Shown piece after piece: positions 9,667 through 25,774 of a stretch of DNA of 32,000 bases (its first letter is position 1; each line of letters begins with the position of its first letter). The notes under the pieces were generated by a model that saw only the letters and a program-made list of their open reading frames with translations, made no database searches and was not told the origin of the DNA. The DNA is from Caldimicrobium thiodismutans. Lineage in GTDB: Bacteria; Desulfobacterota; Thermodesulfobacteria; Thermodesulfobacteriales; Thermodesulfobacteriaceae. Position numbers and translations under genes: made by a program. Location of the stretch: the NCBI RefSeq assembly GCF_001548275.1, contig NZ_AP014945.1:330001-362000 (forward strand), given 5' to 3'.

Positions 9667-10128
9667 TCAGCCTCCACTTAAGTGAAGGGCAAGTATTTTT
9701 TCCTCAAACTCTTTTTTAAAGGATTTAAAAAATGGTGGTGTATATTTTAAAAGGGAAGCATAGTTGGGAATGAGTTCCGAGTCTCCTCTCAGGGTAATCT
9801 GAGGATAAACCTCAATAAGAATAAAGGTTTGAAGATTAGTGAGGAGAGCAAAATAGGGTAGGGGGTTAAAAAAAATACGAGCTATGGCTAAAAGAGGTCT
9901 TTCAAAAGATGAAAGCCCACCTTTACTGGGATGATAATTTACAATAAGAAGGGTTTGCTCATTTTCTATCACCAGAGGGAGCTCAAGTTCAAAAGAGAGG
10001 CCCTGATATGAAAAGAAAAGTTCTTTTTTGAGTTGAAAACTCTCTTCAGGATAACCTTTCTGAAGGAAGAGGGTTTTAAGAGCAGTTAAAATTAGATCCT
10101 GAGAAGGCGGTTCTTTACCAAATTCCAT
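9667..10128 (-). CDS. Hypothetical protein, possibly a degenerate HsdR_N / PD-(D/E)xK-like domain
   Basis: 153 aa, last gene of the BFN-PHP operon; its ATG overlaps the PHP 3' end by 37 nt. The pattern L..L...GYPEESF...(E)LELPLVI....LLIVNY resembles the type I restriction HsdR N-terminal domain, but the catalytic residues are not clearly conserved. No clear SD. Confidence 0.45.
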   Translation of the reverse strand: MEFGKEPPSQDLILTALKTLFLQKGYPEESFQLKKELFFSYQGLSFELELPLVIENEQTLLIVNYHPSKGGLSSFERPLLAIARIFFNPLPYFALLTNLQTFILIEVYPQITLRGDSELIPNYASLLKYTPPFFKSFKKEFEEKILALHLSGG

Positions 10129-11258: not shown

Positions 11259-11395
11259 ACCCTTCACCTCTTGCAAATAAGTTTATTAATAATGTTAAGC
11301 TTTCTCCAGAGAAAAGTCAAGGTTAATGAATGCATTTCTCATAGAATTTTCTTTAGCAAAGCAGAAGCTTTTATCGATGATTTAGGGGTGGGTGC

Positions 11396-11471
11396 ATAGG
11401 TTCATTTTCCTGCAACAGAAGTAGTAGAAAAATCCCCTTTAAATCTCAAACAATATGGACTTATGCAAAAC
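11396..11471 (+). repeat. Copy A of a 76/77-nt direct repeat (partner at 12451-12527)
   Basis: Hand alignment gives 65 identical of 77 aligned columns (one 1-nt gap). Contains a 12-bp closing stem, GCATAGGTTCAT (11394-11405) with ATGGACTTATGC (11455-11466), including two G.U-type pairs. Confidence 0.8.
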
Positions 11472-11524
11472 CTCTTGTTTTTTTTCATTTTTCTTTTAAG
11501 TTTTGAAATTAAGGTGGGACTTTT

Positions 11525-12253
11525 ATGCAAAGGGCTAAAAAAAGTATCAGATCCAAAGTAGCCTTAAAGGAAATGTTAATTCGGGATCTCCCCGAACTTT
11601 TAAAGGAAGATCCCCTTCTTAAGGATTATGTAGCAAGTCTTTTCAAAGAAAATTTTGCAGACAAAAGAACCACTGAAGAAGAGATTAAGGCCCTTTTAGA
11701 GGAGATTAAGAACCTAAGAATTGAGAGTGAAAAAAGATGGGAAGAACATTCAAAGAGGCTTGAGGAACATTCTCAGAAGCTTGAAGAACTCTCTCAAGGC
11801 AATAAAATCCTGATGGAAGAAATCCTTGCCTTAAGAAAGAGACAGGATGTGCAGATTAGTGCCCTTGGGGCAAGATGGGGAATTAAATCAGAGAAAACCT
11901 TTCGCAATGCGGTAAAAGGTCTTCTTGAGGAAACCTTTGGGGTTAAGGTAGAACATTATGAAACAACTGATTTAGAAGGTGAGGTCTTTGAAGGTTTTCC
12001 TGGTAAAAGGGTTGAAATTGACCTTATTATTAGAAATGGTGAACTTATTGTAGCTGAGATTAAATCTTCCGTTAGTCCTGGAGATGTTTTGCTTTTTGAG
12101 ATAAAGGTAAAGTTTTTTGAGAAAAAAGAAGGGAGAAGGGTCACAAGAAAGATAATTATTTCTCCTATGATTGATCGTGAGGCAAAGAGCTTTTGCAAAA
12201 GTCTTGGAATAACCTTTTACACGGATGTCCCTGATAGAGAAGAAGGATTATAA
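11525..12253 (+). CDS. Coiled-coil + PD-(D/E)xK nuclease-fold protein (DUF3782-like)
   Basis: SD AAGGTGGGA sits 6 nt upstream of the ATG. N-terminal charged heptad region (EEIKALLEEIKNLRIESEKRWEEHSKRLEEHSQKLEEL). C-terminal ALGARWGIKSE...VEIDLIIRNGELIVAEIKSS gives a D...E-x-K core. Confidence 0.75.
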   Translation: MQRAKKSIRSKVALKEMLIRDLPELLKEDPLLKDYVASLFKENFADKRTTEEEIKALLEEIKNLRIESEKRWEEHSKRLEEHSQKLEELSQGNKILMEEILALRKRQDVQISALGARWGIKSEKTFRNAVKGLLEETFGVKVEHYETTDLEGEVFEGFPGKRVEIDLIIRNGELIVAEIKSSVSPGDVLLFEIKVKFFEKKEGRRVTRKIIISPMIDREAKSFCKSLGITFYTDVPDREEGL

Positions 12254-12268
12254 GAAGAGCAAAAAATC

Positions 12269-12281
12269 GGTGCATAGGTTC
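12269..12281 (+). repeat. Exact 13-nt partial copy (GGTGCATAGGTTC) of the left end of repeat A
   Basis: Identical to 11391-11403. Lies 15 nt after the stop of the DUF3782-like CDS, so the CDS is flanked by this 13-mer in direct orientation. Confidence 0.7.
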
Positions 12282-12314
12282 TGATTCTTCCAAGAAAAAA
12301 GAAGAGTGGAAAGA

Positions 12315-12378
12315 GGTAAAAGGTGAGAGGTGAGAGGTGAAAATGTGAGAGGTGAAAGGTGAAAGGGGAGAGTAGGGA
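12315..12378 (+). repeat. Tandem heptamer array, about 9 units of GGTGARA, inside a 90-nt C-free tract (12292-12381)
   Basis: Units read GGTAAAA GGTGAGA GGTGAGA GGTGAAA aTGTGAGA GGTGAAA GGTGAAA GGGGAGA GTAGGGA. Contains 3x GAGGTGA and 2x AAGGTGA. Confidence 0.85.
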
Positions 12379-12420
12379 AGACCTGCGTATCTGCCCAATA
12401 ATATAAAGAAACATATAACA

Positions 12421-12440
12421 GGCAAACACATAGGTTTGCC
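12421..12440. other. Perfect 7-bp hairpin GGCAAAC-ACATAG-GTTTGCC
   Basis: Inverted repeat read directly. The loop carries CATAGGTT, which is also the core of the 13-mer repeat. Not followed by a T-run on the plus strand. A T-rich tail exists on the minus strand, but no minus-strand gene feeds into it. Confidence 0.5.
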
Positions 12441-12450
12441 CCTACAAAAT

Positions 12451-12527
12451 ACAGGTTCATTTTCTTTAAACTGAAGTAGTATAAAAAATCCCTTTTAAAT
12501 CTCAAAAGATATGGACTTATACATAAC
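12451..12527 (+). repeat. Copy B of the 76/77-nt direct repeat
   Basis: See copy A. Ends 38 nt upstream of the ATG at 12565. Equivalent closing stem is 12449-12460 with 12511-12522. Confidence 0.8.
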
Positions 12528-12547
12528 TTTGCCTTTTGGTGGGTTGA

Positions 12548-12556
12548 TGTTATAAT
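12548..12556 (+). promoter_or_regulatory. Extended -10 element TGtTATAAT, 8 nt upstream of the ATG (possible leaderless mRNA)
   Basis: TG at 12548-12549 and TATAAT at 12551-12556. The ATG is at 12565 and the intervening TAAAAATT contains no SD. Confidence 0.4.
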
Positions 12557-12564
12557 TAAAAATT

Positions 12565-13581
12565 ATGGCTTTTCTTGCCTTTGATTGTGAGGGACCTCTT
12601 ACACTTAATGACAATGCCTTTGAATTTTCAGCCTATTTAATTCCAAGGGGAGATTATTTTTTTACTCAAATCTCTCGTTTTGATGATTATCTGGCAGATA
12701 TCAAAAAAAGGCCGGGTTATAAAGCAGGAGACACCCTAAAACTCATTCTCCCTTTTCTTAAGCTCTTTGGGGCTACAAACAAGCTTCTGGAAGAGTTTTC
12801 TGCTAAAACCCTTTTATTTCTCCCCAAAGTTGAAGAGGTTTTACCAGCCCTAAATAAACTTTTGCCTACCTTTATTATTAGCACAAGTTATAGGCCCTAT
12901 TTAGAGGCCTTGGCCCAAAAGCTTAACTTTCCCCTGTCTCAAATCTTTTGCACAGAGGTGGATTTTGATAAAGTTGAATTATCCGCAAGTGAAGCTAAGA
13001 TTCTGCAAAGCCTTTATGAAGAAATCTTAAAATTCCCTTTGATTGAGCTTCCCAGAGAGGCCCAAAAGGTGGAAGATCTTACTCCCTCACTTAGAAATAT
13101 TTTAGATCGTCTTGAAGAAATCTTTTTTGAGATAATCTGGAATCTTGATTGTGGGGTCTTTTTAAGGGAGGTCAATCCCATTGGTGGTGAAGAAAAGTCC
13201 AAAGCCTGCCAGATAATAGCTGAAAACTTAAATAATTCCTTGGCAGAGGGATTTTACTGTGGGGATTCCATAACGGATGTCCAGGCCCTTAAACTCGTTA
13301 GAGAAGGAGGAGGAGTAAGTCTTTCCTTTAATGGAAACAGATATGCCCTTAAGGCTGCTGAGTTTTATGCCCTCTCAGGTAAGGCCAATCTTTTCTTAGA
13401 GCTTGCACGAATGTTTTTGGAAGGAGGTCCTCTTCATCTAAGAAAGTTTTCAAAAAACCTGGAGGAAGATTATGAATTTGGTCCTGTTCCAGAGGAGGAG
13501 GGAGATTTTCTACAGCTTCTGGAAAGGTCTGAAGCCTTTCGGAAAAAGGTAAGAGGTGAGCTCATCGGAGCCCTTGGATGA
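12565..13581 (+). CDS. HAD-superfamily-like protein, resembles the EhaR (energy-converting hydrogenase A subunit R) family
   Basis: N-terminal FDCEGPLTLNDNAFEF (HAD motif I variant D-x-E) and C-terminal YCGDSITDVQAL (HAD motif IV GDxxxD). About 340 aa. The EhaR call is from memory of the DCEGP signature. Confidence 0.6.
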   Translation: MAFLAFDCEGPLTLNDNAFEFSAYLIPRGDYFFTQISRFDDYLADIKKRPGYKAGDTLKLILPFLKLFGATNKLLEEFSAKTLLFLPKVEEVLPALNKLLPTFIISTSYRPYLEALAQKLNFPLSQIFCTEVDFDKVELSASEAKILQSLYEEILKFPLIELPREAQKVEDLTPSLRNILDRLEEIFFEIIWNLDCGVFLREVNPIGGEEKSKACQIIAENLNNSLAEGFYCGDSITDVQALKLVREGGGVSLSFNGNRYALKAAEFYALSGKANLFLELARMFLEGGPLHLRKFSKNLEEDYEFGPVPEEEGDFLQLLERSEAFRKKVRGELIGALG

Positions 13582-25501: not shown

Positions 25502-25774
25502 GGGAGGAGTCAACTATCAGAAATAGGGTAAGGGAAAAATGTTAGCCATAGCAAATCACCTTGGAATTATTAATTATCTTACTTTTTCCTTTATTAGGAC
25601 TCTTAATCACATGATCAAGCCCTGTTTATTTGATGATTTTTTTAGAAGAAGGGGGAGGAGTTCTTTAATCTGGCTTTCAAGGAAAAAAGAGTTTTTGGAT
25701 GTGGCTAGAGGAGAATTTTGCAAAGGTTCATGTTTATATCATAAACAAAAAAAATTACAGAAGGAGGGGATTAG

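Follow-up and report, generated by a model that had tools for sequence, protein, structure and literature searches.

How a solitary gene came to stand between two copies of a direct repeat is the question raised by a short interval of the Caldimicrobium thiodismutans chromosome, which separates the BFN-PHP operon from a HAD-like gene. The interval lies in a window of 32,000 nucleotides (nt) of contig NZ_AP014945.1 (positions 330,001 to 362,000), and its gene, an open reading frame (ORF) at 11525-12253 which is 100% identical to THC_0343 of this species, encodes a predicted coiled-coil nuclease. An earlier note on this DNA had proposed that the gene is an inserted cassette, bracketed by copies of a single ancestral repeat that was duplicated around the insert. 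The comparisons described below confirm the insertion and assign the repeats to a different origin: they are two copies of a composite module which belongs to a species-specific family of mosaic repeats, and they are not a duplicated target.

The insertion and its borders

In the sister Caldimicrobium species (loci L011 and L012) the gene order is kept whole on both sides of the interval, the flanking proteins are 74-95% identical, and the BFN and HAD genes are adjacent, with 218 nt between them and without a nuclease gene. The homology of the window to L011 ends at 11324 and restarts at 12525, in each case immediately upstream of a -35 box (that of BFN and that of HAD, respectively), leaving 1200 nt of the window opposite 121 unrelated nt in L011. 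The window copy is thus an insertion of about 1.1 kb between the divergent BFN and HAD promoters, relative to the sister species, and the empty site that the earlier note had proposed to look for in relatives exists. The empty state is found in a different species; both C. thiodismutans genomes compared are occupied, and the gene is present at no fewer than five other unrelated sites.

The borders were inspected for traces of the insertion event. No duplicated target was found at the boundaries defined by the empty site (11324/11325 and 12524/12525), and the search for terminal inverted repeats near the insert ends returned just a low-complexity pair of a T-run and an A-run, 71% complementary. 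The 121 nt of the empty site in L011 hold no recognisable repeat copy, and the duplication of a single ancestral repeat around the insert is accordingly not borne out. The position of the gene beside what had been described as another nuclease-rich operon looks incidental, because the BFN-PHP operon is also conserved beside the empty site. In a third Caldimicrobium species (L013) the contig breaks off within G-rich and C-rich tracts (CCTCACCTTC... and GGTGAGGAGG; L013:1-307), 307 nt before the HAD gene; this end may be an assembly break at a repeat, and the site may be occupied in that species too.

The repeats themselves are where the earlier note had placed them. The exact 13-mer GGTGCATAGGTTC has two copies in the window, at 11391-11403 and 12269-12281, which are not attributable to chance (0 of 100 shuffles matched), and a direct repeat of about 77 nt occupies 11396-11471 and 12451-12527. 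A repeat search recovers the latter as two blocks, 11398-11443/12453-12498 with 83% identity and 11428-11471/12484-12527 with 89%, which are offset by a 1-nt indel, and a 35-nt degenerate core of it matches these two sites alone in the window (0 expected). The upstream long copy is placed inside the divergent intergenic region between the BFN and DUF3782 genes, while the downstream one stops 38 nt short of the next ATG (12565). Two further elements also proved to be as described: a C-free heptamer tract, which is a period-7 purine array with 8.6 copies of AGAGGTG, and a hairpin of 7-8 bp (GGCAAAC-ACATAG-GTTTGCC). The 13-mer and the 77-mer are, however, one repeat and not two, in that the upstream copy (11391-11466) corresponds to the downstream composite (12269-12522) with about 170 nt missing; the missing stretch comprises the heptamers and the hairpin, and lies between ATAGGTTC (12274) and ACAGGTTC (12452). 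RNA folding of the 3' non-coding region gives no compelling signal, with z = -1.6 for the plus and -2.5 for the minus strand. Rfam has no match in the whole window at gathering thresholds, and at E <= 1 over the insert it yields nothing but a sub-threshold rivX match within the coding sequence.

The features of the insert and its borders, from left to right, are the following.

11292-11324, minus strand: native promoter region of the BFN operon (TTGACT-17-TAACAT), from a promoter scan; window positions 11259-11324 align with L011 5774-5839, and homology to the empty-site species stops at 11324.
11325-11390, no strand assigned: locus-specific spacer, common to neither the empty site nor the paralogous loci (blastn and pairwise alignment).
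11391-11466, plus strand: upstream repeat copy in short form, with the start of module A (the 13-mer, 11391-11403), a type-1 B-left and a B core (11438-11466).
11475-11518, plus strand: the gene's own putative promoter, TTGTTT (11475-80), 16 nt and TAAGTT (11497-502), with a Shine-Dalgarno sequence AAGGTGGG (11511-18); read by eye, below the scan threshold.
11525-12253, plus strand: coding sequence of THC_0343, 242 amino acids (aa), with N-terminal helices, a coiled-coil helix (residues 47-117) and a predicted C-terminal PD-(D/E)xK-type domain (E164, D166, E178, K180).
11741-11796, plus strand: 21-nt tandem repeat coding for EHSKRLE/EHSQKLE heptads.
12269-12380, plus strand: module A, with the conserved start GGTGCATAGGTTCTGATTCTTCCAAGAAAAA followed by the purine-rich heptamer microsatellite (12312-12372).
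12390-12446, plus strand: conserved pre-hairpin segment TCTGCCCAATAATATAAAG and hairpin GGCAAACACATAGGTTTGCC (12421-12440), terminator-like on the minus strand.
12447-12524, plus strand: downstream repeat copy, with a type-1 B-left and a B core (12494-12522); right end of the window-specific DNA.
12525-12564, plus strand: native promoter of the HAD gene, TTGCCT at 12529, 16 nt, and TGnTATAAT ending at 12556; kept in the species without the insert.

The putative promoter of the nuclease gene has at most one mismatch in 31 nt across all six single-gene copies compared (the window and L006-L010, of which the latter are described below), and of the five other genomes compared, three (L001-L003) also have a TTGTT-type -35 and a TAnnnT -10 box before the gene. 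On the right-hand side, the extended -10 box of the HAD-like gene (TGTTATAAT; window 12551-12567, L011:5987-6003, L013:294-310) ends 8 nt before the ATG, a spacing which is kept in three species, so that the HAD-like mRNA is possibly leaderless or nearly so. On the left-hand side, the BFN-PHP operon ends in a 153-aa ORF (window 9667-10128, minus strand) which has no Pfam match, has a 37-nt overlap with the PHP gene and is kept in L011 with 74% identity.

The mosaic repeat family and the copies of the gene

The gene is not single in this species. Besides THC_0343, the TF1 genome encodes THC_0403, 0711, 0947, 1521 and 1627, which makes at least six copies, and a metagenome-assembled genome (MAG) of the same species, GCA_017880035.1, which differs from the window by 0.8% of its DNA, has eight; the multi-copy character that the earlier note had expected is thus confirmed. 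The paralogous loci were read in this 99%-identical MAG in place of the TF1 loci, and comprise the locus orthologous to the window (L006), single copies at four further places (L007-L010) and a tandem triple (L025). The paralogs have 94-97% protein identity outside the heptad region, and their main difference is the number of heptads. The triple is a direct tandem of three DUF3782/PDDEXK_10 genes (284, 305 and 277 aa; L025:7718-10834) whose two intergene spacers of about 255 nt are identical to each other. At six of six loci the gene downstream of the nuclease copy is co-oriented with it.

Comparison of all the loci of the species resolves the repeats into modules. Module A begins GCATAGGTTC, is purine-rich and holds the heptamer microsatellite; module HP consists of the hairpin and the conserved segment just before it; B-left exists in two sequence types; the B core is 29 nt long (TTTAARTCTCAAAAGATATGGACGCATAC); and module C is a unit of about 330 nt found at six sites. 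The start of module A recurs at L007 7648/8839, L008 410/7674/8860 and L010 2050, and the pre-hairpin/hairpin unit at L007 8998, at L008 9036, 9939 and 15609, and at about 11090 in L025. In 183 kb from other species none of the modules was found. The direct repeats that flank THC_0343 are two copies of the composite module A-hairpin-B of this family.

The association of modules with the gene extends beyond the window. The A-HP-B composite follows the gene in the window, L007, L008 and L025, in the last case after the third gene alone and directly before the promoter of a DsbC-like gene, where two adjacent REP-like palindromes, GGGGTTTAAAATTTTAAACCC and GGGGTTCAAGATTTTGAACCCC, are also seen within the post-gene module region (L025:10940-11010). 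The question whether each paralog is flanked by the same repeat has a mixed answer: the B repeat brackets the gene at the unrelated loci L007 and L008, but L009 and L010 have no clean upstream B. Modules also occur without the gene, as solo B or hairpin-B copies, upstream of a DAHP-synthase gene (L010), metK, uvrD and a DUF6657 gene (L008). Their placement is narrowly defined, since among 12 distinct B cores a TTGNNN follows after 6-8 nt in 10, after 16 nt in one, and the remaining one is followed by an A module; in L010 the B core precedes the -35 box of the host gene. The -35 box of the HAD gene is native, because it is conserved in species without the insert.

These properties raise the possibility that the bracketing is a coincidence. 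The modules would then be independent promoter-seeking elements, or a shared cis-regulatory or UP-like element, of which one happens to stand upstream of the nuclease promoter and one upstream of the HAD promoter, and the gene would have arrived through an unrelated duplication. The fixed distance of 6-8 nt between the B core and the -35 box, which holds at the promoters of unrelated genes and at that of the nuclease gene itself, speaks for such an account, as does the existence of solo copies. It also accommodates the fact that the two window copies, B and B', are not each other's closest relatives: the B-left of the downstream copy has 81-83% identity with its L008-metK and L025 counterparts and 73% with its upstream partner, which, together with the solo copies, also counts against the duplicated-repeat reading of the earlier note. 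The spacing on the other side of the gene speaks against coincidence. Module A starts 15-17 nt after the stop codon in the window, L006 and L025, while in L007 and L008 a further conserved segment, about 75 nt long, separates this junction from the stop; the near-constant start argues that the gene and its downstream module travelled together. L007 and L008 moreover have in common one 1.4-kb block that includes both modules, and no alternative route by which the gene could have moved is evident. A coincidental origin of the bracketing is for these reasons considered unlikely.

The family is in flux. Between the MAG and the window, positions 12324-12440 (heptamers and hairpin) are replaced by a 235-nt C module, and since the two genomes are 99% identical, this turnover of modules must be recent. 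The C module sites are L008:15275-15594, L010:1707-2046, L010:14539-14868 (minus strand), L009:10161-10465 (minus strand), L007:5952-6220 and L006:8800-9034. They contain remnants of a short reading frame (..KVKELxRKIRRYQKMLERAYL..) which is intact, at 132 aa, in L010 alone. A coding role for module C or A was considered and rejected, as the L010 ORF has no Pfam match and four short Caldimicrobium homologues, and the other copies contain stops. A separate intergenic repeat of about 175 nt, at window 25590-25766 upstream of a CheY-like gene and at L007:3391-3567 downstream of cheX in the MAG, holds the 13-mer-like sequence GCAAAGGTTC.

The predicted nuclease and its ancestral locus

THC_0343 matches two Pfam models well above their cut-offs, DUF3782 at residues 82-156 (67.9 bits, cut-off 24.4) and PDDEXK_10 at residues 162-229 (64.7 bits, cut-off 21.2), and the assignment to a DUF3782-type family that the earlier note had offered stands. 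An alignment of 59 sequences, in which the mean column identity is 29%, shows no variation at E164 and K180 and at least 90% conservation at D166 and E178; judged by this alignment, the putative D...(D/E)xK catalytic residues are conserved. An AlphaFold2 model built from 59 diverse homologues has a predicted local distance difference test score (pLDDT) of 83 overall and above 89 across the nuclease domain, with helices (H) and strands (E) in the order H123-138, E141-149, E161-170, E173-179, H185-202 and E208-212. When the C-terminal domain of the model is compared with the Protein Data Bank (PDB) by Foldseek, the top matches are EndoMS/NucS (5gkj, 2vld), AF1548 (1y88) and the nuclease domain of Can2; for 5gkj, 2vld and 1y88 the probability is 1.0, but the E-values are no better than about 1e-3 to 1e-4, at identities of 16-20%. 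A sequence search of the PDB with THC_0343 gave coiled-coil noise and nothing more. The restriction-endonuclease-like core that had been read from the sequence is therefore supported, as a predicted PD-(D/E)xK-type fold, by Pfam, alignment, model and fold comparison alike. NucS/EndoMS and AF1548 have the closest folds to the C-terminal domain, but THC_0343 has neither the N-terminal domain nor the PCNA motif of NucS, and NucS lacks the N-terminal coiled coil.

The coiled coil is hypervariable in length. Its 7-aa EHSKRLE/EHSQILK units, for which 21-nt DNA repeats code, vary in number from paralog to paralog and from strain to strain. The proteins range from 242 to 385 aa, and one pair, whose orthology is assumed, measures 298 aa in TF1 and 312 aa in the MAG.

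The DUF3782/PDDEXK_10 family, to which 855 clusters at 50% identity match, is known in the literature. The PDDEXK_10 family (PF07788, formerly DUF1626; COG5493) with a DUF3782 stalk has the same architecture as THC_0343, namely a predicted abbbab nuclease domain after a long N-terminal coiled coil (PMC1913061, PMC4786415). Its members have been predicted to be relatives of Hjc/Hje among the PD-(D/E)xK nucleases, and have been described as endonucleases on a coiled-coil stalk, with no function reported (PMC1913061, PMC4786415, PMC3424549). Full-text searches for DUF3782, DUF1626/PDDEXK_10/PF07788 and COG5493 brought up no paper with a biochemical test of the family. THC_0343 is an ordinary member of this known, uncharacterised family, and since the family has no experimentally assigned function, membership says nothing about what the protein does.

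A role in defence or addiction had been suggested for the gene, which might, for example, encode an effector associated with type III CRISPR systems or a type I toxin with an antisense RNA. The protein does match the PADLOC model C3a181 (E = 3e-13), a cluster of candidate type III CRISPR accessory proteins that was defined from three occurrences beside type III cas cassettes (PMC6546367), and the gene evolves fast between species, where its identity is about 58% and that of its neighbours about 83%. On the minus strand, B'/HP also has a promoter-like site and a terminator-like hairpin, which could belong to an antisense RNA. Against this, none of the 12 loci examined has cas or other defence genes beside it, the neighbours being housekeeping genes; no second ORF is conserved; the A tract is a variable microsatellite; Rfam has no match; and eight near-identical copies would be unusual for a defence gene. 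The small minus-strand RNA (promoter TTGAGA-16-TATACT in B', with the hairpin as terminator) was rejected as a candidate, as the promoter, and in particular its -10 box, is not conserved in L007, L008 or the solo copies. With a single PADLOC match, no partner ORF and no defence island, this claim of the earlier note is weak, and a defence or addiction module is very improbable.

Each of the five other genomes returned by the genome scan (L001-L005) has a single gene locus, the homologues in these genomes have no bracketing direct repeats, and the neighbours in other taxa are unrelated housekeeping genes. At L009 the gene stands between an adenylosuccinate lyase (ADSL) gene, on the minus strand, and an Ldh/Mdh gene that begins 10 nt downstream, and this arrangement is syntenic in two other Caldimicrobium MAGs. 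The ancestral home of the gene is therefore between the ADSL and Ldh/Mdh genes. The copies that have been added to it are, on the evidence of substitution patterns, under purifying selection, as the ratio of non-synonymous to synonymous substitution rates (dN/dS) among the C. thiodismutans paralogs is 0.08-0.15. They also exchange sequence: the orthologous pair formed by the window copy and L006 differs at 23 of 729 nt, with a dS of 0.10 where the flanking genes have 0.01-0.03, and at nearly all of these 23 sites (about 21) the L006 allele recurs in another paralog, a pattern characteristic of ectopic gene conversion.

Multiple copies of an insert whose sole protein is a predicted nuclease with intact catalytic residues might be understood as an autonomous selfish cassette. 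The nuclease would cut in or beside the B module at promoters, and repair of the break would copy the unit, which amounts to intragenomic homing into a dispersed target. The many near-identical copies with their mosaic gene conversion, the constancy of the right junction, where the B core lies beside the -35 box, and the existence of an empty site are all compatible with this scheme, and the patchy distribution of the family across prokaryotes has been read as horizontal transfer (PMC3424549). The scheme meets three difficulties. The occurrence of one locus in each of the five other scan genomes, without bracketing repeats, and its synteny in two Caldimicrobium MAGs argue that the ancestral role of the gene is independent of the modules. 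Homing would split its target, and would not leave complete copies at both sides. Finally, searches of the phage, plasmid and IMG/VR collections turned up no relatives. Homing of this kind is accordingly considered unlikely.

Spread of the gene and comparison with known systems

The insertion, the amplification from the ancestral locus, the linkage of the gene to A-HP-B, the promoter-adjacent and oriented modules, the signature of purifying selection and the ongoing exchange between copies having been shown by the comparisons above, the route by which the gene spread must be inferred from them. The proposal that it spread by recombination between module copies is given about an even chance. 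Under this proposal, modules would first have settled beside promoters, that of the nuclease gene included. Recombination between modules would then have moved a unit of gene plus module into resident modules elsewhere, either by excision of a circle followed by Campbell-type reintegration or by gene conversion; either route would produce the order module-gene-module, co-oriented with the downstream gene. The gene would in this way have been amplified in the lineage together with its own promoter, giving the present six to eight dispersed or tandem copies. The upstream module of the window would later have lost its A tract and hairpin through a deletion between the 8-nt microhomology ATAGGTTC/ACAGGTTC, which would have fused the 13-mer to the 77-mer. 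The protein would be a predicted functional cellular nuclease kept by selection, which may stimulate these events through breaks that the model does not require.

Spread by recombination between modules would explain why the gene stands between two modules, why this unit shares the orientation of the downstream gene, why the right junction falls at the B core and why the two flanking copies are not sisters. Several observations nevertheless weigh against it. The repeat census and the association of modules with the gene come from about 129 kb, a sample that was picked for containing gene copies. Neither a circle nor an excision scar was seen, and no gene copy showed a presence/absence polymorphism. 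Since the empty site has no resident module, a prior module insertion must be assumed there. The architecture is not uniform, because, in addition to the absence of a clean upstream B at L009 and L010, the spacers of the L025 tandem have no B module. Finally, the model does not explain how the modules reached their promoter-proximal position.

A bolder variant would give the protein an active part, in that the coiled-coil PD-(D/E)xK nuclease would mobilise, or be targeted to, a new class of promoter-seeking mosaic repeats which insert in one orientation and end 6-8 nt upstream of the -35 box; we regard this as distinctly unlikely. Enzyme and repeats would then be paired as RAYT and REPIN are, but with an enzyme of PD-(D/E)xK type, and the gene itself would be carried along and amplified. 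The likeness to RAYT/REP systems lies in a nuclease-type gene flanked by dispersed intergenic repeats that are also found alone. The differences are that RAYTs are HUH/Y1 enzymes, usually single-copy, with inverted REPs, whereas here the enzyme is of predicted PD-(D/E)xK type, multi-copy, and associated with direct repeats. The window proteins have no match to Y1_Tnp, and there is no evidence here of an enzyme-to-repeat link.

Free-standing homing endonuclease genes, including those of PD-(D/E)xK type such as I-Ssp6803I, likewise form small nuclease-only inserts with an empty site in a relative, but they occupy one allelic site, in contrast to the many unrelated loci, the complete repeats on both sides and the ancestral single-copy vertical locus found here. 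The only ORF of the insert has no match to a transposase family in Pfam or NCBIfam, and the neighbouring ORFs gave no transposase match either. An integron-like reading, with the B cores as cassette boundaries, was rejected, there being no integrase and no attC-like inverted structure. The cassette is not an insertion sequence, a RAYT/REP unit or an integron cassette, defining features of each having been looked for and not found, and is probably not a homing endonuclease gene of the classical kind.

Two groups of known elements come closer. The Rpn/YhgA-like recombination-promoting nucleases of Escherichia coli are solitary multi-copy PD-(D/E)xK genes that lie among housekeeping genes and have no transposon ends. 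They belong to the Transposase_31 Pfam family, which had no match in THC_0343, and their paralogs are old, divergent and not within dispersed repeats, in contrast to the 90-97% identical paralogs found here. The BOX and RUP elements of pneumococcus, the Correia elements of Neisseria and the BIMEs of E. coli are mosaic intergenic repeats resembling miniature inverted-repeat transposable elements. Like them, the present family is built from short modules (A, hairpin, B and C) in variable combinations, and is species-specific, intergenic, near promoters and variable between strains. It differs from BOX, Correia and BIME repeats in that its modules are fixed in orientation, lie 6-8 nt from the -35 box, show no terminal inverted repeats or target duplications, and have been co-amplified with a gene. 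By analogy, the cassette most resembles multi-copy solitary PD-(D/E)xK genes of the Rpn kind combined with BOX/Correia-like mosaic repeats, to which it adds a tight geometry between repeat and promoter and a recent co-amplification of the gene.

Although the DUF3782/PDDEXK_10 family occurs widely among thermophilic bacteria and archaea, it has no assigned function, and this locus offers a practical way to approach it through a recently amplified set of copies that is apparently still under purifying selection and still recombining, and that is tied to repeats placed precisely beside promoters. If recombination between the repeats moved the gene, the locus would clearly exemplify a cellular gene that hitchhikes on dispersed repeats, with no transposase involved; if instead the nuclease acts on the repeats, it would constitute a new mobilisation system and would give the family a function. 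For the organism, the promoter-side modules may alter the expression of housekeeping genes, among them a tRNA cluster, serS, metK, the DAHP-synthase gene and uvrD.

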